DNA of 64,000 nucleotides from an uncultured Gemmataceae bacterium (GCA_963750165.1 CAVVPN010000003.1:2016001-2080000); one strand, 5' to 3'. Counted from the stretch's first letter, positions 27,894 through 52,431 are shown. Made by a program: numbers and translations. Notes: generated by a model from the sequence alone, not told the origin.

Positions 27894-28013
27894 AGGGGAA
27901 CCTTATCATGCTGCCTCGGGGGACAAAAGGCTGTTAAGAGGATCCGTAAAAACTCTATTGCATTCCACCTCAGCCCACTCTAATCCAATCCACACGAAAA
28001 CAAGGAGGCGACA

Positions 28014-28289
28014 ATGGGCAAAAACAAGCCAATCCACGAAATCCGCATCGGTCGGCTCCGGGCAGCCATTTGGCAGAACGAGACCGAGGCCGGCGTCCGC
28101 CACAACGTCACCTTCGCGAGGCTCTACAAGGACGGCGACCGGTGGAAGGACTCGGCCAGCTTCGGCCGTGACGACCTGCCGCTCTTGGAGAAGCTCGCGG
28201 ACGCGGCCCACGGGTGGCTGTATCGGGGCGGGGTCGAGCCCCAGCCCCAGGAGGAATGCAACGAGGAGCCCGACCCCGTGGCCGGGTAA
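28014..28289 (+). CDS. Putative ssDNA-binding protein, paralogue of 21574-21912
   Basis: RIGRLRAAIWQN...HNVTFARLYK...WKDSASFGRDDL; AGGAGG RBS. Confidence 0.7.
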   Translation: MGKNKPIHEIRIGRLRAAIWQNETEAGVRHNVTFARLYKDGDRWKDSASFGRDDLPLLEKLADAAHGWLYRGGVEPQPQEECNEEPDPVAG

Positions 28290-41457: not shown

Positions 41458-41849
41458 AGGCGGGGCGGGAAAACCTCGACGCATGCCTTGAGGTGTTTGC
41501 AAGAGTTTCCGATGCCACGCGACCGTATCTGTTTACAGGTCGAGGGTGACAAAGGTACAGAGCGGGACCGAGGGCTGAAGGTGCCTCCCAGCTAGTTCGG
41601 TCGATCAGACCGCAGCAGATTGGCGGAAGAGCGGTTCGTGCTGAGGTGGGGCGGACCGACGCACGCAAGCTCGAGCGCTGTTACCAGGGCCCCCCCCACC
41701 CACGCTGGTCGCCGGCGATGACGTTGCTAACCGGCTGGCACTGCGACGATCGACGGCCAGCCGCCGCGGTGGTGGGCCACCACGTCAACCGTTGTGAGCG
41801 GCCAGGAGTGGGACGCTGGTGTCTGCGGCGCGAAGGAGACGGAGGGCAG

Positions 41850-42028
41850 TCGCTCGCGTGGAGGACTTCGTGGATGATGGTGTCGAGGGTGGCCTGCGGG
41901 CTGAGCTGGTCGCGGATCCGGATCTCCTTGCCCCGCCGCGACGGCTCATCGCACTCCCCCTGCGTGCCGCGGGACAGCTCGCGGGTGAAGCGGAAGCGGT
42001 AGCGTCTGCCCAGAATGGTGACGTGCAC
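41850..42028 (-). pseudogene. HExxH metallopeptidase-like fragment
   Basis: VTILGRRYRFRF...GEC...IRI...TLDTIIHEVLHA, then degenerates. Confidence 0.5.
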
Positions 42029-42109
42029 GGATGAGTTCCATTAGCGTCCGTGACGAGTTTCCCACAGGGCTGTTGATCTGGCTACGGGGGCCGTGGCAGG
42101 GGCTGGCAC

Positions 42110-42926
42110 CTAACTGGGCTTGGCCGAGTTCAAGCTGTCGGCCAGGGTCCAACCACGCTTCGTCAGCGCGAACGATTCGCCCGTGTCCCCGCGCGGTTCG
42201 AGAAGGCGGCGGCTGACCAAGTCGTTGACGGCCTCGCGGTAGGCCGCCTCAAGGCGGGCGTCATTGCCGTCCACGAGCTGCATCCCGTGCGCGGCGAGGT
42301 CGAAGCCGTGCATGCTCTTGGTCATGGACAGGGTGCCGCGCGGGTCCTTGCCGGTTTCCGCGAGGATGTGCTTCGCCTCGTCGGAGAGGTCGGGTTCGTC
42401 CGGCGGGGCTGGCTTGTCCGGCGGGTCCGGCGTCGTCACCAGTGTCACCACCTTGCCGAGCTTCCTCTGGAGCGACGGCCAAGACCGGTCGAACGCCTTA
42501 CGCAGGAGCCCCTCGTCGTGAGGGGAGCTCAGCCGACCGTTGATGGTCCGGATGAGCCGCCAGGTGTCGTCCTTCTCGAAGACGGTTGCCTGATACTGCC
42601 CGAGCGGAGTGCCGGAAAGGCTCGACGGCTTGACCTCAACCAGGTACGGGCAGATGAGCGAACCCCGCATCGCGTGGGCGATCGCGCCGGCTTCGTAGTA
42701 GAGCCACGACGACTCGATGTTCTCGGGCGTGACGCAGATGAGACACGCGCCGCTGCGCGAGCTGGTCGGAGATCGCGTTGAACCAGGACGTCCCCTTGGT
42801 GATGTCCTCGCTCGACATCCAGGGCTTGACGCCGGGCAGGGCGTCGGGCAGCCACTCGCTGAACGCCTCGGCGGCCTGGCGACTGCCGGGGCGGGACCAG
42901 CTCACAAAGATTTCAAAGTCGGCCAC
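42110..42926 (-). CDS. TIR-domain protein with C-terminal wHTH-like region (frameshift near 42750)
   Basis: IFVSWS...SRQAAEA...WMSSEDITKGTSW | CLICVTPENIESSWLYYEAGA (catalytic Glu motif); AAGGAG RBS. Confidence 0.8.
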
Positions 42927-43312
42927 GGACGATCTCCTTCTGCTTGGCGGGGCCTTTTTGCGCGGGGCTCGCTGCCGACGAGGACGACCTCATTCGCCTC
43001 GGTCCGCAGGCCCTCCTTCTCGCAAATCGCCCTGAGCTTCTCCTTGTGCTCCGGCGACGTCCCCTCGCCGAGGAGGACAATCGTGAGCGCCTGGAGGATC
43101 TTGTCGACGTCGTCTTCGGAGTTCCAGTCGATGGTGCTCAGATACCGCTGGGTCAGCTTCTGTCGGTCGCCGCCGGACCTGGCCGCGGCCTCGGGCCCGA
43201 GCTCGATGCCGGCACCCTGGAACATGTCGTCGATCTGCTGGAGCTTCAGCCCTTCCCAGCCGCTGCAGAACTTCCGGAGGTCGATCTGAAAAGTAGGCGA
43301 CAGCAGAGGCAC
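42902..43312 (-). CDS. Protein resembling the N-terminal domain of AbiJ/abortive-infection proteins
   Basis: QIDDMFQGAGI...SGGDRQKLTQRYLSTIDW..EDDVDKIL; overlaps the TIR start; resemblance by eye. Confidence 0.5.
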   Translation of the reverse strand: MPLLSPTFQIDLRKFCSGWEGLKLQQIDDMFQGAGIELGPEAAARSGGDRQKLTQRYLSTIDWNSEDDVDKILQALTIVLLGEGTSPEHKEKLRAICEKEGLRTEANEVVLVGSEPRAKRPRQAEGDRPWPTLKSL

Positions 43313-43449
43313 GGCTTGTTCCCTCGGGGAGCCGGGGCTCGCCTCCGGCCCATCTGGTCTGTCGGTTCTTCCATCGCTGATGAGATTCTGACGGCGAATC
43401 GGTCCGCCGGCCGGTTAGCTGAACCGGCCCAGGCGGCACGTCGGATGGG

Positions 43450-44397
43450 TCACCACCCATACTTCTCGCGATGGTCCCGGTCGATCTCGTCCTCCTCCTC
43501 TTCCTCCTCGTCCTCTGGGAGGACGTCGCCCTCGTCCATCGTGAGCAGGACGGCGAGCGTGCCCATGACGGGCACGGGCAGGAACGCCTGCGTCACCTCG
43601 ACGTCGTGGAGATCCTCGCCCCGGTCGAACGTCTGGAACCAGTGGCGCAGCAGGCCGTCTTCCTGGTGTCGGCCGTCGTCGCCTCGTTCAAATGCGGCCC
43701 AGCGGGCCTGCGCCACCGGCGACTCGATGTCCTTCTTGCCGGGATAAATCTTCGCCGCGATCAGCGAGTTCGACGGGAACAGCCAGGCGATGCGGCCCTC
43801 GCGCAGGCCGGCGAGAGCACAGGGCTGGTCGGAAAGGCGGACGCCGCGGCGAGCCGTGCAGAGAAGTGACGCCTGGAACTCGGCGGCAACCTTATCGATC
43901 GTCGCGAGCGTCAACTCGCCGTTGTTCAGCGACCGGTCGACGAGGTGAGTCGGGAGCAGGAGGCTCGCCGCGAAAGCGTCGGCCTCCCGCTCCTTCTGCG
44001 ACGCGTTCTTGAACTCGCCGCTCGACTCGTGGGGCGGCTCGCCGTTCACGAGGTCTTCGTGGTGGCGTTCGAGAAAATAATGACCGAGCTCGTGGCAGAC
44101 CGAGAACCGGGTCCGCGGGTGGTGCTCGCCCTCCGGCATCACGCGGTCGTACTTCGTGTTGTAGTACAGGAGGAACCGCTTCTTCGTCGGCTCATACTCG
44201 AGCTTCCCGTCGTACCGGTCGCCGAGGTCGTCGCCGCCGGTGCGCAGGAACGCTCGCTCCGTCTCTGCGACGGCGAGGGGGTCGATGCGGCCGGTCAGCT
44301 TCAGGCGCTTGACCAGCGCGTCGGCCTCCGCTCCAGCGCGGGCCTGGCACTCCTCGTCGGCCTGCCACTCAAGTTTCGTCTTCCTCGGGCTCGTCAT
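43450..44397 (-). CDS. ImmA/IrrE (CapP-like) zinc metalloprotease
   Basis: RTRFSVCHELGHY, EREADAFAASLLLP, FQASL, extended C-terminal region. Confidence 0.92.
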   Translation of the reverse strand: MTSPRKTKLEWQADEECQARAGAEADALVKRLKLTGRIDPLAVAETERAFLRTGGDDLGDRYDGKLEYEPTKKRFLLYYNTKYDRVMPEGEHHPRTRFSVCHELGHYFLERHHEDLVNGEPPHESSGEFKNASQKEREADAFAASLLLPTHLVDRSLNNGELTLATIDKVAAEFQASLLCTARRGVRLSDQPCALAGLREGRIAWLFPSNSLIAAKIYPGKKDIESPVAQARWAAFERGDDGRHQEDGLLRHWFQTFDRGEDLHDVEVTQAFLPVPVMGTLAVLLTMDEGDVLPEDEEEEEEDEIDRDHREKYGW

Positions 44398-44728
44398 CGC
44401 TCAGCATCTTTCTCTTCAGGTCGTCTTCCTTCTTGTCAGTCTCGGGGGTCTTCTCGCCCTCGTTGCGATGGATCTGATACCTGCCTCGGGCGGCCTCGTC
44501 GACAACCTCGTCGCCGTCCCACTCGCCGTCCTGGTCTGGGGTCCACTCTTCGTCCCCGCTAGACGTCGCCGAATCGACAATTTCTTTGATGCGTTCCTCC
44601 GAGATCTTCACCTCGGGGGCGTCGCGGTACGCCGCCGCGGCCTCCTCCGGGGTGAGCGGGCAGAAACCCTGCTTCTTGCGCAGCTTGGGGGCCAGGTCTT
44701 CCCACAGCTTGTCGGCGTCGGAACTCAT
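44369..44728 (-). CDS. Acidic small protein, putative anti-sigma factor / protease substrate
   Basis: ATGA overlap with the sigma stop codon and 29-nt overlap with the protease; function inferred from position. Confidence 0.6.
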   Translation of the reverse strand: MSSDADKLWEDLAPKLRKKQGFCPLTPEEAAAAYRDAPEVKISEERIKEIVDSATSSGDEEWTPDQDGEWDGDEVVDEAARGRYQIHRNEGEKTPETDKKEDDLKRKMLSDDEPEEDET

Positions 44729-45353
44729 TTGCTCCCTTTCGTGCTGTCCTTGCGGGCTTCGCGCTCCAGAATCCTACTCCTGATTTTTTCTCTGACCTTG
44801 CTCCTTGTCGCGTAGACCGTGTTCAGGCTCTTGCTGTTCTCGGTGGCGAGGCGGTGGGAGTCAGCGGTGCCGCCGACGGCAAGGTCTGCCCGGGCCACGA
44901 TCTGCTCGAAGCCCGTCAGTTCGTTTTCGATGATGTCTTCCATCATTTCGACCCGGGTCATCTCCGCGGACCCGCACTCCGGGGGGTCGTCTTCGCAATG
45001 GTCCGCGGGGTCGTGCTCCGGGTCGAACTCCAGTTCCTTGGCGACGTGCTTCTTCTCCCCGCGGATGATGCTCAGGGCGGCCCGCTGGACGATCCTGATG
45101 AGCCAGCTCCCGAAGTCCCCTTCCGACGGCTTGAAGCGGTCCGCGAATCGCCAGACGTTGTGGAACGCGTCGGTGACAGCCTGGTCCATCTCGGGCTCGC
45201 GCAGGCGCCACGGAACTGGGTCATGAGGTAGCCCATCGCCCTGGGCGTACACCTCCTGACCAGCAGCGTCAGAGCGTCCTTGTCCCGGTCTTCCGCAATG
45301 CGGCGCACCAGGTCAACGTCGATGTCCTCGTCCGGCGGCGTCTCTGTCGCCAT
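44725..45353 (-). CDS. ECF-type sigma factor (1-nt frameshift near 45205)
   Basis: DVDLVRRIA..D.DALTLL | DQAVTDAFHNVWRFADRF....GDFGSWLIRI (region 2); SLNTVYATRSKVREKIR (region 4). Confidence 0.8.
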
Positions 45354-45375
45354 TGAAACCTCCCGCCTCCTGAAC

Positions 45376-45540
45376 GAATACGCACCATCCTTAACCGCGA
45401 CCTTACCGGAACAACACGTCGTTCTGGTTAAGGTTCCAGCGTAATCGATGGCGGGCGGGAAGTCACTGCGACTCGGCCCCGAAAAAAAGCGCCGGGCCGG
45501 TTAAGGCCGGTTAAGGCCCCCCTTAATCCAGGGTGAGGGC
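45376..45540. promoter_or_regulatory. Divergent promoter region with repeated GGTTAAGG-N7/8-TA(A/T)TC motifs
   Basis: Minus 45396-45376; plus 45426-45446 and 45509-45528; extra GGTTAAGG at 45499. Confidence 0.6.
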
Positions 45541-45620
45541 GGGAAGTGCCGCCCGACGGTAAGCCCCGAACGCGGGGCAGGCTCTAGCCGTCGCCGGAAC
45601 AGGCGACAGGAAGGGGTTTT

Positions 45621-45902
45621 ATGTCCACCACCGCTGAAGAGGCCCGTGCGGGCCACGACCAGCACGGGCACCACGCCGACCGCTGCCACACGGTTGACAT
45701 CCACGTCAACAACCACAAGGTCGTCCTCCAGCCGGGCAAGTACGACGTGCCCACCTTCAAGAAGGTCGCCGGCGTGCCGCAGGCCGACGACCTGGAAGAG
45801 CTGGTGAACTGCAAGCTCCGGCCGGTCGCCGAGGACGCGACCATCCACATCCAGGGCTGCGAGGTGTTCATCTCCCACGTCAAGGACGGCGGTGCCTCCT
45901 GA
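45621..45902 (+). CDS. Ubiquitin-like (multi-ubiquitin family) protein
   Basis: VDIHVNNHKV...KKVAGVP...L...IHIQGCEVFISH beta-grasp pattern; ends GG-AS. Confidence 0.8.
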   Translation: MSTTAEEARAGHDQHGHHADRCHTVDIHVNNHKVVLQPGKYDVPTFKKVAGVPQADDLEELVNCKLRPVAEDATIHIQGCEVFISHVKDGGAS

Positions 45903-45910
45903 GCTTTGAG

Positions 45911-46264
45911 GTGACCGCCATGTCGTACCCCGAGGATCAGGTGGCGGAGCTGAAGCTGCTCTGCCCCGGCGTTTGCGAGGTCAAGGAGGCAGGCTGCATC
46001 CTCTACTTTCTTCCGGGGCTGATCCTCCCGGACGGGTGCAACCCGGTGCGCACGGACGCGCTCCTCTGCCCGAGCGCCCGCGACGGCTACGCGTCGCGGC
46101 TGTTCTTCGCGGAAAGGGTGGAGTCGAAGGCCGCGGCTGTGCCCAACTGGAACGCGAACGGTGTCCGCATCGCCGAGCGGAACTGGCACGCCTACAGCTG
46201 GAAGACGAACCCCAACCTGCGGCTCGCGCAGATGGTCGCGGCCCACTTGAGGGCCCTCCGATGA
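45911..46264 (+). CDS. Prokaryotic E2-like protein
   Basis: LILPDG...DALLCP..RDGY.SRLFF...NWN...WHAYSW; position between Ubl and JAB genes. Confidence 0.7.
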   Translation: MTAMSYPEDQVAELKLLCPGVCEVKEAGCILYFLPGLILPDGCNPVRTDALLCPSARDGYASRLFFAERVESKAAAVPNWNANGVRIAERNWHAYSWKTNPNLRLAQMVAAHLRALR

Positions 46265-46770
46265 CAGTCAAGGTGCGCATCCCGCGCAAGCTGCTCGACA
46301 ACGTGCGGGCCGACCTGTCGCGCCCGCACGCTTTTGCCGCCGAGCGAATCGGCTTCCTGTTCGGCCGGCTCGCCGCCGCCGACCAGGCCCTCGTGCTGCT
46401 GACCGGCTACGAGCCGGTGGCAGACGACCGCTACATCAACGACCCCTGGTCGGGTGCGCGCATCGACAGCACCGCCATCCGCGGCGCGATGCAGAGCGTC
46501 CTGGACCGGGGCGAGGGCGGCTTCCACGTACACTTGCACCACTGGCCCGGCCGCCCCGTGCTGAGCCGGATGGACGCCAAGGAGATACCCCCGGTCGTGA
46601 CGGGCCTGCGCCGCGTCGGCCTGGCCCAGGCGCACGGCATCGTGCTGCTCCACGAAGTGGAATGCGCGGCCTGGGTCTGGTTGCCCGGCAAGGAGGAAGC
46701 CGTCGAGGCGGAGTCGGTCTCCGTCGTCGGGTTCCCCCTCTCAATCTTCGGAGGAACGAGCCGTGAGTGA
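46261..46770 (+). CDS. JAB/JAMM metallopeptidase
   Basis: AERIGF...HVHLH-x8-S-x2-D; ATGA overlap with the E2 gene. Confidence 0.8.
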   Translation: MTVKVRIPRKLLDNVRADLSRPHAFAAERIGFLFGRLAAADQALVLLTGYEPVADDRYINDPWSGARIDSTAIRGAMQSVLDRGEGGFHVHLHHWPGRPVLSRMDAKEIPPVVTGLRRVGLAQAHGIVLLHEVECAAWVWLPGKEEAVEAESVSVVGFPLSIFGGTSRE

Positions 46771-47572
46771 CGATCGATTCTCGAGACAGTCCTTCCTCGG
46801 CGAACACAGCCAGGCCGCCATCGAGCGCGCCGTCGTCGGCGTCGTCGGCCTCGGCGGCGGCGGCGGCCACGTCGTGCAGCAGCTCGCCCACATCGGCTTC
46901 ATGAACTATCGCTTGTTCGACCGCGACCACGCGGAGGAGTCGAACCTGAACCGTCTGGTCATCGCCACGGAGGCGGATGCGACGGCGGAGACGCTGAAGG
47001 TGGAGTTGGCGAAGCGCAGGATCTTGTCCGTGCGCAGCGCCGCCAAGGTCGAGACGTTCCCCTGCCGCTGGCAGGATCGGCCCGAGCATCTGCGCGGCTG
47101 CGACGTCGTCTTCGGCTGCGTAGACGGGTTCGCCGAGCGGCGCGAGCTCGAGGTCGCCTGCCGCCGGCACCTGGTGCCGCTCATCGACATCGGCATGGAC
47201 GTCCACGTCGTCGGCGACGAACCGCCGCGGATGGGCGGCCAGGTGATCCTGTCGATGCCCGGCTTCCCCTGCATGACGTGCCTCGGCTTCCTGAGCGAGG
47301 CGAGCCTGGCGCGCGAGGCCGGCCGGTACGGCGACGCCGGCCCGCGGCCCCAGGTCGTGTGGCCGAACGGGGCGCTGGCATCGACGGCGGTCGGGATCGC
47401 CGTCGATCTCGTGACCGACTGGACGCGCAGGATGCGCGGCGCGGTGTACCTGATGTACGACGGCAACACCGGCACCATCACGCCGCACCCGCGGCTTGTC
47501 CACCACGACGGCTCGCCCTGCCCCCACTTCCCGCCGGACCAGGTCGGCGCGCCGGTCTTCAAGAAACTGTGA
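46763..47572 (+). CDS. ThiF/E1-family adenylyltransferase
   Basis: RFSRQ, VVGLGGGG, D.D....SNLNR, KVE, GCVD...R, PCMTC. Confidence 0.93.
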   Translation: MSDDRFSRQSFLGEHSQAAIERAVVGVVGLGGGGGHVVQQLAHIGFMNYRLFDRDHAEESNLNRLVIATEADATAETLKVELAKRRILSVRSAAKVETFPCRWQDRPEHLRGCDVVFGCVDGFAERRELEVACRRHLVPLIDIGMDVHVVGDEPPRMGGQVILSMPGFPCMTCLGFLSEASLAREAGRYGDAGPRPQVVWPNGALASTAVGIAVDLVTDWTRRMRGAVYLMYDGNTGTITPHPRLVHHDGSPCPHFPPDQVGAPVFKKL

Positions 47573-47585
47573 CGGTCGGTTTTTT

Positions 47586-47622
47586 CCGGTTAAGGCCCGC
47601 GTGTAATCAGGGTGAAGGGCGG
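47586..47622 (+). promoter_or_regulatory. Further copy of the promoter-like motif, upstream of DUF1883
   Basis: CCGGTTAAGGCCC-GCGTG-TAATCAGGGTGAAGGGCGG versus CCGGTTAAGGCCC-CCCT-TAATCCAGGGTGAGGGCGG at 45507. Confidence 0.65.
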
Positions 47623-47672
47623 CCGAAGGCGCGCCGCCCGCCCTGTTTCTCGGTTCAGTGGGGGGCTTCATC

Positions 47673-47930
47673 GTGAAGTTCTTGCATTGGCAGGTGGACG
47701 CGGTCGATGGCACCGTCGTCAGGGTCGAGCTGGACGCTCAGGCCAACGTGATGCTCATGGATGACAGCAACTTCTCGTCGTACCGCAGCGGCCGGCAGTA
47801 CCGCTACTTCGGTGGCCACGCCAAACGGTCGCCAGTCACGCTGGCCGCGCCGCACACCGGCCGCTGGCACGTCGTCGTTGACCTCGGCGGCTACGCTGGC
47901 CACGTCAACGCGAGCGTGTCGGTGCTGTAG
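47673..47930 (+). CDS. DUF1883-domain protein
   Basis: ANVMLMDDSNFSSYRSGRQYRYFGG.AKRSPV....P..GRWHVVVD. Confidence 0.85.
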   Translation: MKFLHWQVDAVDGTVVRVELDAQANVMLMDDSNFSSYRSGRQYRYFGGHAKRSPVTLAAPHTGRWHVVVDLGGYAGHVNASVSVL

Positions 47931-47950
47931 CCGCGAGTGCGAAACGACAA

Positions 47951-47978
47951 GGCCTCGGTCTCCCTAACGACCGAGGCC
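47951..47978. terminator. Hairpin between convergent ORFs
   Basis: GGCCTCGGTC-TCCCTAAC-GACCGAGGCC. Confidence 0.45.
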
Positions 47979-47985
47979 CGTGATG

Positions 47986-48108
47986 TCATTTCATCTCTTC
48001 GGTCTTCTGCGGCGGCTTCCGTCGCCGGTCGAGCAAGGCGAGGGCCAGGGTCGCCACTGCGGCGACTGCGCTTGCGATCGTCGCCATTCCAACTGCGAAT
48101 TCGAGCAT
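47986..48108 (-). CDS. 40-aa single-TM peptide
   Basis: GGAGAAGG RBS; MLEFAVGMATIASAVAAVATLALALLDRRRKPPQKTEEMK. Confidence 0.5.
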   Translation of the reverse strand: MLEFAVGMATIASAVAAVATLALALLDRRRKPPQKTEEMK

Positions 48109-48502
48109 GAGCCTTCTCCGAATGCCAGTTACCGGCATCCGGGGAGTCAAACGATTTTGAACTGAGTCAGATCGTTATAGGCTGGCACTCGGCGCTGGCG
48201 CGTGGCTCCGTCGCTGGCTTTGGCCCCTGACCTCCCGCGCGTGGGCGGATGAGGTGCTCGGCACTCGCACTGGACCCTGCCGATGGCTCTGGCTCTTGGC
48301 CGTGGTCGTGTCTGACGGACCCTCGCCGGCATGCCACCGTTCCGGGCGAGCTGCGCTCGCCCTTCCTCAATTATACTTCGGCGGACGGTGGTAATAATTT
48401 GAAATGGGACACGGTGCCAGCTCCTGAACCCCCGATCAGCGTGACGTGACTATTGAGTTTGACGTATTGCGCAAGAAATCGACCTCGAGCGAGGACCTAT
48501 AG

Positions 48503-49399
48503 ATGCTTCCTTTTGAAGACCAGGCGCGCGCGGACGTGGAAGCGGATCATCACAAGGAACTGGCCGAGAGCCGCGAGCTTCTCGGGCTCGCCTTGGACAT
48601 GATCGGCAGCGATGGCCAGGGCGGTCTCCGCATCCCCTCTGAGCCGGTGCCGGGGGTGACCGACAGGGCGAGGTCGTTGGCGCTCGGTCTCTTCGCAAAG
48701 GCGTGCAAACAGTTCCGCGGCATCATCATCCTCGCCGAGCGCGGCTTCGGGGACGAGGTGACCGTCCTGACGCGGTCCCTGTTCGAGACGACGCTCGCGA
48801 TGAACTTCATCATGAACGAGAACGTCGCGCTCAAGAGGGAGGGGAAACCCTTCGACCCAGACCCGTCGCGTCCGCTCGACACCGACTTCCGCACGCTCAT
48901 CTACGGCGCGCACTCCGCCTTCACGCAGGCCAAGCGGTACCGGCAGTGGGGCGAGCGACCGGAACTGCGCCCGAGCATCGGTCTGCGCGGCGCTCCGGAG
49001 GCTATCGCCGCCCAGACGGCCGCAGCCCGTGACGCGGTCGGCGAGAAGTGGTGGGAGGCTCTCAAGGGAGGACAGGCCGGTCTGTCGGTCAGAAACCTGG
49101 CCGACTCGCTCGGGGTACTCTCCTACTACCTCGTGGTCTACGGCGACCAGTCTGAAGTGGCGCACGCGGGCGATGGCCTGATGCACTTCGATCTCGAGGA
49201 CGACACCAACCACGGGGCGCTCGACCTCTGCCCGTCACCTGACGGGATCGGCGGCCTCCTGCATCTCGCGGGGCTTGTGTTCCTCGGCACACTCACGGGC
49301 ATCCACAACCGGCTAAAGTTCGGGGATGCGGTTGACAAGAAGCTCGACGGTTTCGCCGCACGCCTCGGCGTGCCGGCAGGCAATGAGGTTCGATCATGA
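48503..49399 (+). CDS. DUF5677-like (HEPN-related) protein
   Basis: LTRSLFE...SVRNLA...Y...Y...SEVAH pattern; GAGGA RBS. Confidence 0.6.
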   Translation: MLPFEDQARADVEADHHKELAESRELLGLALDMIGSDGQGGLRIPSEPVPGVTDRARSLALGLFAKACKQFRGIIILAERGFGDEVTVLTRSLFETTLAMNFIMNENVALKREGKPFDPDPSRPLDTDFRTLIYGAHSAFTQAKRYRQWGERPELRPSIGLRGAPEAIAAQTAAARDAVGEKWWEALKGGQAGLSVRNLADSLGVLSYYLVVYGDQSEVAHAGDGLMHFDLEDDTNHGALDLCPSPDGIGGLLHLAGLVFLGTLTGIHNRLKFGDAVDKKLDGFAARLGVPAGNEVRS

Positions 49400-50265
49400 A
49401 ATATAGGGAGTACAGCATCTTCTATTCGTGGCAGAGCGACGCCGACCCTGCCACGAACTGGGAGTTCATCCGTGGCGCGCTCGATGTAGCGGTCGAGGAG
49501 ATCAAGCAGCGCAAGGGCTTCGACATCCCGGTCGTCGATTCCGGAATGGAGCGAGTCGGCGGCACGCCCGAGGTGGCGACCGTCATGTTTGACAAGATCC
49601 GCGGCGCGGCCATCTTCGTCGGCGACGTCTCGCTCGTCGGGGAGATCAAGCCCCACGGTAACAAGTCGACTAAGAAGACGGCGAATCCGAACGTGCTCAT
49701 GGAGATGGCCTACGCCGGCGCGAAGCTGGGCTGGCAGCGGGTGATCTGCGTCATGAACCAGGCGTTCGGCCGGGCCGAGAAGCTGCCCGTCGACATCCGC
49801 AACCGACGCTGGCCGGTGCGTTACAGGATGCCGCCGGACGACAAGACGACAGCCGAGCAGGTGAGGGCGAAGCTGGCGGAGGACCTGAAGACCGCCATCG
49901 ATGCGATCATCTACGTGGACGACCAGGCGGTCGCCGACGCGGTCCGCCGGTTCGACTCCAACTGCATCAGCGTGGTCGCGGCCTCGCGGTTCCACCCGAG
50001 CTTCCACGCGCCGCGGGCCAACCAGGTGACGATCGGATCGCCAACCGGCATGGACACCCTGGCGCTGAACGCGGCCATCCCGAGGCTCCTTGACCTCGGC
50101 CTGATCCACTGCGACTTCGACAGCCGGCAGGAGCTCTTCGCCTACCATTGGACCTGGCTGGGGCGGATGTTGATCCGCCAGCACTGGCCCAACGACATCC
50201 CTGAGTGGATTCTGCAGATCGACCGCGAGTCGCCGGCCGCCGGGTACGAGCAGCGACCGCATTGA
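49396..50265 (+). CDS. TIR/deoxyribosyltransferase-like nucleotide-processing domain protein
   Basis: IFYSWQSD...GTPEVA...DKI..A.IFVGDVS...NPNVLME..YA...LP.DI; ATGA overlap with the upstream gene. Confidence 0.7.
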   Translation: MKYREYSIFYSWQSDADPATNWEFIRGALDVAVEEIKQRKGFDIPVVDSGMERVGGTPEVATVMFDKIRGAAIFVGDVSLVGEIKPHGNKSTKKTANPNVLMEMAYAGAKLGWQRVICVMNQAFGRAEKLPVDIRNRRWPVRYRMPPDDKTTAEQVRAKLAEDLKTAIDAIIYVDDQAVADAVRRFDSNCISVVAASRFHPSFHAPRANQVTIGSPTGMDTLALNAAIPRLLDLGLIHCDFDSRQELFAYHWTWLGRMLIRQHWPNDIPEWILQIDRESPAAGYEQRPH

Positions 50266-50352
50266 CTATTGGATGCGCCGATGCCGCCGGTGCCGGAAGG
50301 GTTATGGAAGGGAAATGCCTGCGCGGCGTGCAAAACGCGCATCAGGGACACC

Positions 50353-50546
50353 TGTCACGAGCGGTTTGGAACTGAGCCACTTTCGCGGAGCCACTTGAGC
50401 CACCCTCGGAGCCGCTGGGGCAGGGGCTGGTCGCCGTAAGTCCAAGTACGGGTTCCTCTTCTCTGTTGCCGGTAGCTGCCAATGGGGCCTGCGGGGTGGC
50501 TCACTTCTGGCCGCGAAAGTGGCTCACTTTCTGACCGCGATCGACA
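50353..50546. mobile_element. IS21-type MITE, copy 2 (194 bp)
   Basis: Homologous to 20145-20327; TGTCA...CGACA ends; 6-bp direct repeat GACACC (50347-50352, 50547-50552). Confidence 0.85.
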
Positions 50547-51024
50547 GACACCCCCACCGCCGGCCGCGACCCCAGAAAAGGCCCGGTTTTCACGCATGTT
50601 TTGCACGGCTTGCACCGGAGAAGCCGCTTCTGCATCGGCAAGCAATGAACCGAAACAGTTTCGGGGGTGAGCGCTTTGGTCTTCTCGACCTCCGCGCGCA
50701 AGCCGAAAGGACCAGCGCGAATCGGACCGAAACCCCTCGGGCGATGTGACCGAATGCAGCGCGCTCACTGTTCAGGCAGGCCAGCCTGTAGGCTATAGAA
50801 TGACTTCGCCGTCCACGAGGCCCTGAGCCAGGCCGGGCGAGCCGACGTGATCGACGACGGCTGCGACTGCCTAATCCCGTCACATCCGCATAAGGAGGCG
50901 ATCGAGGCCCCGCTGGCGGCAGGCCAACCGGGCGGTGAACGGGCCGACCAGTGTTCGTTCACCGCGACCCCAGGGCCCGGGAGGTCGGCACCACTGTGTC
51001 CAGGTGCGGCCCCCGAGGCGGACA

Positions 51025-52251
51025 TCAGACCCGGCCGCGCACCAGGTCGATGAGCCGGCCAAGGACGCGCTCCCCGTCGGCGCGTAGGCCGTTGTGCTCG
51101 TATTCATCGGTAACCCACGGCCGCAGGCCCCGGATCGCGACGGCCGTCTCCTCCGCGAAACGCCGCTCGACGTACAGGTCGTTGACGTAAATCGTCGCGG
51201 CAACAGGGACCTCGTTGCGGGCAAGCTGAGCGGCGTCGTACAGGCGCGGCCAGGGGTGCTCCGCCAGGATCTCGGCAGCGGCGCCGTGGGAGTGCAACCC
51301 GGAGAAGTCCTGCCACATCCAGCGGAACACGTGCTCGGCCGTGAAGTAGCGCTCCTGGGCGACCTCGTCGGGCATCGTCCGCTCGGCCGACCAGCGCGTG
51401 GGCACCCCGTCAGCGTACGACGACTCGTGGAGCGTGGCGTAGATCGGGTTCCTCCCGAACCGCGCCGCCTCGTCCACGTCGTGGAGAAATGCCCGCGAGC
51501 CGGGCGGCAGCTCGACGATGTGGTGGATCTGCTCGAAGCCGGCGCTGTCGCCGAGTTTGAAGCCGAGCTGGAGGAAGCGGCGCGCGGTGAGCCGGTCGCC
51601 GGACGGGAGCCGGACGTCCTCGTCATCGAGCCGGTGGAGGATTTCCCTGACCCGTTCGCGGTCCCCAGGGTAGCGCTGGAAGTAGGCTCTGTTCTTCTCG
51701 ATCGCGCGGGCCCACGTCGCGGCGTACACGTCATCGACGGGCCGGCCGACCGGCGAGAGGCCGCCGGTGATGAGCGCCTCGCGCAGGCCTTCCGGGGCAA
51801 ACGAGAGGTAGGTCATTGTGCAGAAACCGCCGAAGCTCTGGCCGAGGACGCTCCACCGATCGACGCCGAGTTCGTGCCGGATCAGTTCCGCGTCGCGGAT
51901 AATGCCATCGGCGCGCAGGTGAGTCATGTACGCAGCCTGCTCTTGCGGCGTTGAGCCAGGAATATCGCCAACCGGAGTCGAGCGACCGGTGCCGCGCTGG
52001 TCGATGAGCAGCACCCGGTAGTCGGCGATCGCCCGCTTCTGCCAGCCCGACGGGGGTGCGGTGGGTCGGGTCGCCTCAAAGCCTGGGCCCCCCTGAAGGA
52101 ACAGCAAATACGGTCGGTCGAGGCCATCGGGCGCAGCAAGTTCGCGAGTGAAAAGAGTGATCTTCTCGCCATCGGGCATCGAGTGGTCCAACGGGACCGA
52201 GTGGGCTCGCTCGGTGAGGACCGCGCCGGGAACGCGGTAGGTAACTGCCAT
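51025..52251 (-). CDS. pip: Proline iminopeptidase (alpha/beta hydrolase)
   Basis: LQGGPG, DQRGTGRS, GQSFGG, DLYV, EYEHNGLR. Confidence 0.9.
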   Translation of the reverse strand: MAVTYRVPGAVLTERAHSVPLDHSMPDGEKITLFTRELAAPDGLDRPYLLFLQGGPGFEATRPTAPPSGWQKRAIADYRVLLIDQRGTGRSTPVGDIPGSTPQEQAAYMTHLRADGIIRDAELIRHELGVDRWSVLGQSFGGFCTMTYLSFAPEGLREALITGGLSPVGRPVDDVYAATWARAIEKNRAYFQRYPGDRERVREILHRLDDEDVRLPSGDRLTARRFLQLGFKLGDSAGFEQIHHIVELPPGSRAFLHDVDEAARFGRNPIYATLHESSYADGVPTRWSAERTMPDEVAQERYFTAEHVFRWMWQDFSGLHSHGAAAEILAEHPWPRLYDAAQLARNEVPVAATIYVNDLYVERRFAEETAVAIRGLRPWVTDEYEHNGLRADGERVLGRLIDLVRGRV

Positions 52252-52431
52252 AAGCGGACTCTCCCCTCGCACTACACTTGCAATGTACGGGCTACGGTAC
52301 AACCGACCCTTAGGACAGGCGACCGTCTGACAATCTCCCCTTTGCGGTGATCAAGACGCAATCCGGGCTTGTTTGGCACCATCTTACAAAGTGGCCTACG
52401 CACTGCATCGACGGCGGCTTGCGTGCTTCGG

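Follow-up and report, generated by a model that had tools for sequence, protein, structure and literature searches.

A sigma factor, a small acidic partner and a CapP-type protease beside a Bub-like conjugation operon: a candidate sigma-factor version of the CapH/CapP switch

CapW as well as CapH/CapP and CapK/CapS are locally encoded DNA-damage controllers of defense operons, and all of them act by lifting a repressor, according to the 2026 CapK/CapS paper. In CapH/CapP, the protease CapP cleaves CapH between F82 and R83 (Lau et al. 2022, bioRxiv 10.1101/2022.04.27.489752; mechanism 10.64898/2026.05.16.725639), and the capH/capP pair lies divergently upstream of 15% of Type II Bil operons (available part of PMC10557695). 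Lau et al. (2022) also mention, in one sentence, a sigma-70-family gene beside capH/capP in 24 CBASS systems. In Myxococcus xanthus, DdvS, a sigma factor of the extracytoplasmic function (ECF) type, and its anti-sigma factor DdvA positively control a CBASS-CRISPR defense island (accessible part of PMC11506125). Here we analyze a locus at positions 42110 to 47930 of a stretch of 64,000 nucleotides (nt) from an uncultured Gemmataceae bacterium (GCA_963750165.1 CAVVPN010000003.1:2016001-2080000), which we call the window. Genes for an ECF-type sigma factor, a small acidic partner and a CapP-family protease (the trio) stand there back-to-back with genes for a ubiquitin-like protein (Ubl), an E2, a JAB peptidase and an E1. 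From modeling and sequence comparison we propose, with a probability of about 0.62, that the trio is a variant of the CapH/CapP DNA-damage switch built around a sigma factor and drives a Bub-like operon. This proposal rests on the recurrence of the trio in the place of CapH, a modeled sigma-partner complex from a related locus (L027), an invariant arginine in the partner and DNA sites shared by the two gene sets.

The trio in the place of CapH

The three genes are on the minus strand and overlap, the sigma gene (44725-45353) sharing 4 nt with the partner gene (44369-44728), which in turn shares 29 nt with the protease gene (43450-44397). Open reading frames (ORFs) for this group and for the divergent Ubl-E2-JAB-E1 operon were found where an earlier sequence-only reading of the window had placed them. 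Each gene of the locus occurs once in the genome (E 1e-5), and the closest named relatives are Gemmataceae.

To define the family, an alignment of 61 protease sequences was used to take the best 80 matches from each of three collections, giving 240 loci, and genome searches added 26; because only the best 80 per collection were taken, the sample leans to kin of the query. A single-protease query of the genome collection gave no match, and the alignment query succeeded. Collapsing at 90% protease identity left 198 clusters, and keeping those with a score of at least 80 and 1.3 kb of upstream sequence left 128 non-redundant CapP-like loci. Sigma and partner were present in 61 of these, a helix-turn-helix (HTH) gene in 53 and neither in 11, while 3 were partial and none had both; the class counts are partly circular, since loci picked by hand from this very set had served to seed the profiles for sigma, partner and HTH. 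The absence of an HTH repressor next to the sigma gene, noted earlier for the window, extends to the set of 128 loci, none of which combines sigma and partner with an HTH gene, and the trio recurs beside Ubl/E1 and other defense operons. We conclude that the trio is very probably one regulatory module, and sequence comparison supports its placement where CapH would stand beside defense-type operons.

Named carriers of the trio belong to Planctomycetota, Verrucomicrobiota and Bacteroidota. Its distribution is patchy: in a sample of 401 genomes from the phylum, the protease was found in 11 (1e-15) and the partner alone in 3. At 50% identity, the partner profile recovered 1,094 clusters with E values up to 0.001, and 261 of these remain at 1e-10. 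In a protease tree of 111 rows (quick mode), the sigma-type and HTH-type sequences are parted by one change with a support of 50, a value that does not establish a single origin.

Among the 99 of 152 candidate genes that were scanned, the cargo facing the trio comprised multi-ubiquitin/E2/E1 operons, DUF6527 operons, Pycsar-like pairs, 6A-MBL, TIR-HNH, DUF2188, YjzC and lamin-tail proteins. The multi-ubiquitin/E2/E1, Pycsar-like, 6A-MBL, TIR-HNH and DUF2188 types match known CapH/CapP cargo. In 14 of 48 trio loci, and likewise in 12 of 39 HTH loci, a divergent E1 gene lies no more than 5 kb away, and L027 and L187 have the same four conjugation genes in the layout of the window. In four loci (L028, L029, L030 and L033) a single lamin-tail-domain gene, a candidate defense or stress gene, faces the trio. 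A different type of Ubl-E2-JAB-E1 operon with an E1 of 440 amino acids (aa) faces it in two more (L190:5116-7722 and L019:11697-14307), and L018 (G119:C5) has an inserted segment of ~1.8 kb between sigma and partner.

The protease carries the HELGH motif, an instance of the HExxH signature of ImmA/IrrE (M78) metallopeptidases, and matches PADLOC capP over residues 22-277 (7.6e-41), with a length that fits a peptidase-HTH-GAF protein, in agreement with its earlier assignment; CapP 7T5T is its sole PDB match (1e-14). The zinc ligands and active-site residues H102, E103, H106 and E136 are present in 59 of 59 trio proteases, a count that follows in part from how the search pattern was built. R97 and W205, which align with the equivalents of single-stranded DNA (ssDNA)-binding residues in Thauera CapP, are found in 53 and 44 of the 59, with F, Y or H otherwise at the latter position. 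In E. coli CapP the ssDNA-binding residues are R90, W196 and W280 (CapH/CapP literature), and a double mutant of the R97/W205 equivalents abolished ssDNA binding (Calloji 2026, available part). W253 is present in 54 of 59 trio proteases, and equating it with E. coli W280 is a guess. The switch loop of the window protease reads His123-x-Ser125 and lacks a Cys; a His-x-Ser loop occurs in 55 of 59 trio proteases and 65 of 66 HTH-type proteases, and it may be a histidine switch. Given its family membership and conserved residues, the protease would be expected to respond to ssDNA.

The partner is a 119-aa protein with 31% Asp plus Glu, predicted to join an anti-sigma N-terminal half to a CapH-like C-terminal helix. 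It matched no Pfam family and gave no Atlas hit, which does not show novelty. No HTH family was detected in 57 partners, and a CapH-type profile found 0 of 145 further members. The sole invariant column is an arginine (57/57; R88 in the window, Arg79 in L027), which is also R in 142 of the 145 further hits that this profile recovered. Placed between a hydrophobic-X pair and a helix, the arginine aligns with the FR/LR motif in the tails of HTH-type CapH proteins; by this alignment, the predicted cut site in the window partner is H87/R88, matching the site in CapH. Partner-protease fusions, like CapH-CapP fusions, occur in L036:5192-6397 (402 aa) and P0333 (409 aa).

The sigma factor has domains sigma2 and sigma4 only, in ~200 aa, and the family profile matches ECF structures over positions 13-199 (3e-24). 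The window gene gives a sigma-70 region 2 match. Among the 56 of 61 trio loci that passed a length filter for sigma and partner, Sigma70_r2 matched in 41 and r4 families in 8 and 5; the L027 sigma scored 42.6 bits for TIGR02937, with a cut-off of 42.9. The complex envisaged in the sequence-only reading was modeled with the L027 pair. The model scored 0.70 (runs 0.70, 0.81 and 0.67), and the best of 3 controls scored 0.02. Of 157 solved complexes, 116 attained a score of 0.70, as did 2 of 215 mismatched pairs; the calibration is rough because our own alignments were used. At least 63% of contacts were common to the runs, and the predicted local distance difference test (pLDDT) value of the partner was 60-62. 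The interface joins partner residues 8-57 to sigma residues 20-91, 126-134, 152-157, 187 and 190, faces that we take from ECF structures to be those that bind core polymerase and read the -10 element. The partner N-terminal half is thus predicted to bind sigma over regions 2 and 4.1.

Two-box sites ahead of sigma and cargo

A two-box motif with a 7-8 bp spacer stands ahead of both sigma and cargo, and this observation is new here. The pattern GGTTAAGG-N6-9-TA[AT]TC, picked after the locus had been viewed, occurs 4 times in 9.6 Mb and only at this locus, once ahead of sigma, twice ahead of Ubl and once ahead of a DUF1883 gene; a stricter form occurs 3 times in the window with 0.01 expected. The sigma site, GGTTAAGG-N6-CGTATT (45377-45396, minus strand), lies 23 nt ahead of the start codon, and GGTTAAGG-N6-CGTAAT (45426-45445, plus strand) faces the Ubl operon. 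On the same strand, a tandem GGTTAAGGCC repeat with a 10 bp period is followed by a degenerate second box, CTTAAT (45499-45527), so that this box can be paired with the repeat at a short (5) or at a long (15) spacing. The last copy, GGTTAAGG-N6-TGTAAT (47588-47607, plus strand), precedes the DUF1883 gene (47658-47930, plus strand; 6e-29), a family that is also trio cargo in L030. A motif-like TGTTAAGA-N5-CGTAAA at 27932 (plus strand), ~60 nt ahead of a 91-aa ORF at 28014, may be due to chance.

Across trio loci the boxes are GGTTAAGG/TGTAACG and CGTA, and a Gibbs sampler, unaided, returned TAACG-N6-CGTA or its reverse. A loose pattern peaked at a pair of neighboring spacers, with 10 and 11 of 61 regions versus ~1 in controls and shuffles. 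With a two-box matrix trained on the same loci, sites were found on the sigma side in 34 of 60 trio loci, facing the cargo in 39 and on both sides in 30; the corresponding figures for HTH loci, used as controls, were 3 and 4 of 55. When the spacer was left free from 0 to 25 in split-half tests, the 8-nt and 6-nt boxes were separated by 4-6 nt in ~49 of 71 best sites (4-7 had been permitted in training), and the distance from TGTAAC/GGTTAA to CGTA is 7-8 bp. Sigma-side sites have 4-6 nt between boxes in 29 loci and 15 in 1, and mostly end 17-54 nt ahead of the start codon, like a -10 box. A search upstream, and 16-17 nt downstream of the first box, brought up no third conserved box, and a weak GRGG signal downstream is probably a ribosome-binding site. 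A trio subclade (L020, L044, L045, L049, L052, L054, L102, L112 and L159) has no motif match and may use a different promoter.

Longer spacing is seen in the TTAAGG clade, where the cargo-facing boxes of 7 loci (L028, L030, L033 and the close kin L034, L110, L188 and L189) are 16-17 nt apart and the sigma-facing site is short. The long spacing exceeds the short one by one helical turn. Apparent 15-nt sites in L039, L040 and L041, which reuse or overlap short sites, were set aside. In 9 of 9 TTAAG-box loci, one position of the sigma4 helix holds neither Arg nor Lys; co-variation of this helix with the first box was rejected as independent evidence, the loci being nearly one clade.

The two boxes resemble the promoter elements of SigW and SigX. 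A canonical -35/-10 promoter with a 16-17 bp spacer was not found ahead of sigma, canonical spacing being confined to the cargo side of the 7 loci. By comparison, sigma-H works best at a 17 bp spacer and loses activity when the spacer is changed (bioRxiv 534826, available part). The short geometry could mean that sigma4 sits off its usual dock on the polymerase, that another factor reads the first box, or that the sites are operators. The literature that we covered, which excluded subscription papers, gave no description of a short-spacer ECF promoter or of the trio mechanism. The sequence-only reading had a dedicated sigma turning on the conjugation genes, and the promoter-like sites shared by sigma and the Ubl operon agree with this; the spacer, however, is unlike that of an ECF promoter.

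The spacing could also be accounted for by a composite repressor, in which partner and sigma together substitute for CapH, the partner tail dimerizes, the sigma4 HTH binds the short sites and cleavage derepresses promoters of a host sigma. Such an arrangement would keep the logic of CapH exactly, with a cut in the dimerization helix and outside the interface, and most of the sigma4 recognition helix is indeed absent from the listed model contacts. However, the CGTA box is constant while the first box varies by clade, the site is non-palindromic in the TTAAGG clade and the same boxes stand 16-17 nt apart in 7 loci. The model also places the partner over sigma residues 83-88, which by analogy with sigma-E we presume to read the -10 element. 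A scan of 41500-48600 gave no sigma-70 consensus promoter, a weak argument with 0.4 expected. Together these points make a composite repressor unlikely.

The candidate switch, its weak points and the remaining rivals

In the sigma-release switch that we favor, the N-terminal half of the partner would hold sigma in the resting cell, covering, as modeled, the region-2 and region-4.1 surfaces and preventing it from joining RNA polymerase. Single-stranded DNA arising from damage or infection would activate the CapP-like protease, which would cut the partner before the invariant Arg, as the alignment with CapP cleavage of CapH at F82/R83 suggests. The C-terminal helix would be lost and the N-terminal fragment destabilized or degraded, many homologues being left with an Ala-Ala end. 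Freed sigma would then transcribe its own operon, the Ubl-E2-JAB-E1 operon and the DUF1883 gene from the two-box sites, acting as presumed promoters, and autoactivation of the sigma operon would provide positive feedback while also remaking partner and protease. Downstream, we hypothesize that JAB trims Ubl to Gly-Gly and that E1, having adenylated the Ubl, hands it on through Tyr/Ser or Cys to a target, a conjugation that probably serves anti-phage or stress defense.

Several points weigh against this switch. This assembly has a frameshift in the sigma gene, about one third of trio loci lack a site, and a spacer of 7-8 bp, versus ~17 bp for sigma-H, means that the sites may not be promoters for sigma. 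The trio and HTH class counts are, as stated, partly circular; 34 of 48 trio loci showed no divergent E1, and in several loci the facing genes are prophage- or integrative and conjugative element (ICE)-like. The profile match of partner to CapH tail is weak (hhalign probability 4%, E 0.009, 27 columns). The modeled complex is that of the L027 pair, to which the window partner is 48% identical with 20 of 37 interface residues identical, and its score may pass through likeness to solved sigma/anti-sigma complexes. In addition, the predicted cut Arg (79 in L027) falls outside the modeled interface. The protease would thus trim off the tail, and sigma release probably requires a second step after cleavage, either destabilization of the partner or the action of a second protease. 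An Ala-Ala end left by the cut would be of the ClpX type. This dipeptide stands before the Arg in 19 of 57 and 39 of 142 partner sequences, but the window has Ile-His. The earlier proposal that the protease destroys a soluble anti-sigma factor therefore stands in part, the binding having been modeled, but the position of R88 points to clipping and not destruction.

The surroundings of the locus (15000-62000) are plasmid- or ICE-like, with DUF932, DUF6573, DUF5131, repA (PF10134), parA, a tyrosine recombinase and a long helicase/methylase gene. No tRNA was found in the 64-kb window. The locus looks to reside on an integrated plasmid-like mobile element, and its position among repA, parA, the recombinase and the helicase/methylase gene raises the question of whether the trio chiefly switches that element, by an ImmA/ImmR-like induction or as a general damage regulon, with the conjugation operon as incidental cargo. 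Facing genes are prophage- or ICE-like in L034, L110, L188, L189, L191 and L043, the long-spacer site points into them in the first four, and anti-phage activity of Bub is not shown (PMC13373217). Against this, the strict motif occurs in the genome only ahead of sigma, the Ubl operon and DUF1883, the site at 27932 being a stray, and there is none ahead of repA or the recombinase. We consider control of the mobile element less likely still than a composite repressor.

A point absent from the sequence-only reading is that the sigma gene is split in this assembly by a frameshift at 45207, the N-terminal part running from 45353 to ~45207 in one frame and the remainder in another. A public contig of 229 nt (run X1, depth 2.5), otherwise identical to the window, has an extra C at 45207, and so does an X3/X4 contig that is ~95% identical (14 substitutions in 287 nt). 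This frame evidence consists of single low-depth contigs, with X3/X4 probably one data set filed twice and X1 possibly the source sample. The X3/X4 RNA contigs were rejected as a sign of expression. L027, the closest named relative, encodes an intact sigma of 204 aa, and the sigmas of relatives are intact at ~195-250 aa. When 1,892 proteins of relatives were used to probe the assembly, frame changes turned up in 8 of 109 matched genes, sigma included. Because near-identical public DNA keeps the frame, the sigma break is probably an assembly error, which is the simplest reading. A frame change was also seen at G000 C3 2430600-2431215, in a gene matching a probe from the HTH/CapP locus L097.

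The TIR-domain gene beyond the trio (42110-42926, minus strand; TIR_2 E 3e-4, below the cut-off) is split near 42755, its halves matching one PADLOC TIR-TM profile at positions 2-55 and 86-169, and is either an assembly error or a pseudogene, between which none of the listed public read matches decides. That both breaks are real mutations in a decaying copy, leaving the switch dead in this strain, is the least likely explanation: two frameshifts lie within ~2.5 kb, but near-identical DNA retains the sigma frame, 8 of 109 probed genes of the assembly, sigma included, have frame changes, and the remaining genes, like every motif copy, are intact.

The neighboring 136-aa ORF (42902-43312, minus strand) is a lead only as an AbiJ-NTD-like protein, with no relevant Pfam match and one Atlas row at 0.92, in whose cluster AbiJ_NTD3 is found in 40% of members; of the Abi-NTD-like and TIR genes named earlier, the TIR gene is present, though split, and the former has just this row. 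Directly downstream of the TIR gene, an ORF at 41681-42028 (minus strand) with an HEVLH (HExxH) motif and no Pfam or NCBIfam match may be a small or frameshifted metallopeptidase. On the other side, at 48503-50265 (plus strand), a DUF5677 gene is coupled to one for a 289-aa protein with a weak CAP12/Pycsar TIR match; these are possible further defense genes, and no copy of the two-box motif lies ahead of them.

If the sigma-release switch is correct, the sensor used by CapH/CapP would instead free a private sigma, giving an off-by-default, self-amplifying switch in Planctomycetota, Verrucomicrobiota and Bacteroidota. Should the short sites be true promoters, they would break the rule that the -35/-10 distance of ECF sigma factors is set by RNA polymerase. 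The fuller claim, of an unnamed and widespread ECF sigma family that is released by CapP, uses 7-8 bp promoters, a helical turn tighter than the ~17 bp reported for ECF sigma factors, as well as canonical spacing in some loci, and drives an undescribed four-gene Bub-like system, is tentative, with the odds somewhat against it; it would add to the sigma-70 family a promoter geometry not seen before and make the trio a fourth class of DNA-damage controller for defense operons. The cut site, interface and promoter boxes are all predicted and thus directly testable, and the motif can be used to find genes under such a switch and hence new defense candidates.

The conjugation operon and described systems

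The four conjugation genes, all on the plus strand, encode a putative Ubl of 93 aa with a His-rich N-terminal tail and a DGGAS C-terminus (45621-45902), a 114-aa E2-fold protein (45920-46264), a 169-aa JAB/JAMM-type peptidase (46261-46770) and a 269-aa single-domain ThiF/E1 (46763-47572; PF00899, 2e-27) with a CxxC motif. Ubl, E2 and JAB had no Pfam, PADLOC or NCBIfam match, single-sequence PDB searches with them gave nothing relevant, and Pfam matched none of 74 E2 homologues, a set drawn from two loci and the best 120 of 351 hits. The identity of the Ubl is suggested by its position, its size and a GG[AS]S end that 3 of 3 copies share. The E2 model (pLDDT 92.7) is nearest in fold to Citrobacter BubB (Z 11.4, root-mean-square deviation 3.2, 111 aligned; next Z 6.2), and Cys50 and Ser93 are invariant in the 74 aligned homologues. 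JAB is recognized by its E..HxH..D motif and its alignment to Prok-JAB domains. The best PDB match of the E1 is BubCD (3e-13, residues 21-152), in an alignment that ends short of Y370; Tyr189, in a putative crossover loop, is found in 3 of 3 copies and aligns with a Tyr in two JAB-E1 fusions. The order Ubl-E2-DUB (deubiquitinase)-E1, as four separate ORFs, is likewise kept in 3 of 3 copies. Only these three full copies were compared because the E2 family is scarce in our samples (1 of 401 phylum genomes, its own, and 1 viral contig). Among the genes scanned at 42110-52302, no DUF6527 (BubE) was found.

By these features the operon is Bub-like in Bil order and fits the definition of neither; the earlier label of a Bil/Bub-type operon is consistent with the Bub-like E2 fold and the putative crossover-loop Tyr of the E1, whereas the single-domain E1 of 269 aa departs from canonical Bil. 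With Bub, as described in the available part of Ye et al. (bioRxiv 10.1101/2024.11.21.623953), it shares the BubB-nearest E2 fold, a single adenylation-domain E1 with a conserved Tyr that may match the one in Bub, a Ser in W..[FY]SW that aligns with the WSRH of Prok-E2_E, and frequent CapH/CapP control. It differs in having four separate genes, with no fusions and no DUF6527/BubE found, in lacking the His two residues after the Ser, and in an E2 with an invariant Cys and an E1 that keeps its CxxC. With BilABCD Types I and II (Chambers et al., PMC10557695, available part), it shares the order Ubl-E2-DUB-E1 and Ubl residues past the conserved Gly. BilD, however, is a multidomain IAD-AAD-CYS E1, in contrast to the single ThiF domain and BubB-like E2 found here.

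As regards the controller, DdvS/DdvA offers an anti-sigma factor that binds sigma2 and sigma4 and for which release by proteolysis is proposed (PMC11506125, accessible part). DdvA, which RseP processes, is a transmembrane protein of 991 aa and of the TPR-CHAT type whose anti-sigma domain binds zinc, whereas the partner here is small and soluble and the protease is predicted to be of the cytoplasmic, ssDNA-sensing type. Positive ECF control of a defense locus, which the sequence-only reading did not recognize as described, is described for DdvS/DdvA in that source, and Lau et al. mention the adjoining sigma. Beyond these, no mention of "sigma" was found in the available text of Calloji 2026, nor of IrrE or M78 in the text and one supplement of the Casas-Pastor ECF reclassification, as far as these were available. 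In IrrE/DdrO and ImmA/ImmR, as proposed here, an M78 protease cuts a regulator after DNA damage, but their substrates are HTH repressors.

The closest comparison is with CapH/CapP itself. The protease is of the same family, with conserved zinc ligands, R97 and W205, and the genes lie divergently upstream of defense operons; a substrate-like gene with a hydrophobic-X/Arg motif before its terminal helix stands directly upstream, and the kinds of cargo are the same. The differences are that the partner has no HTH, that a dedicated ECF sigma is co-encoded, so that control would be positive, that the switch loop is His-x-Ser where CapP has a Cys (His-x-Ser also occurs in the HTH-type members of this subfamily), and that two-box sites flank the intergenic region. 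The trio is a real, widespread and unstudied variant of CapH/CapP, and the short-spacer site is its most surprising part.

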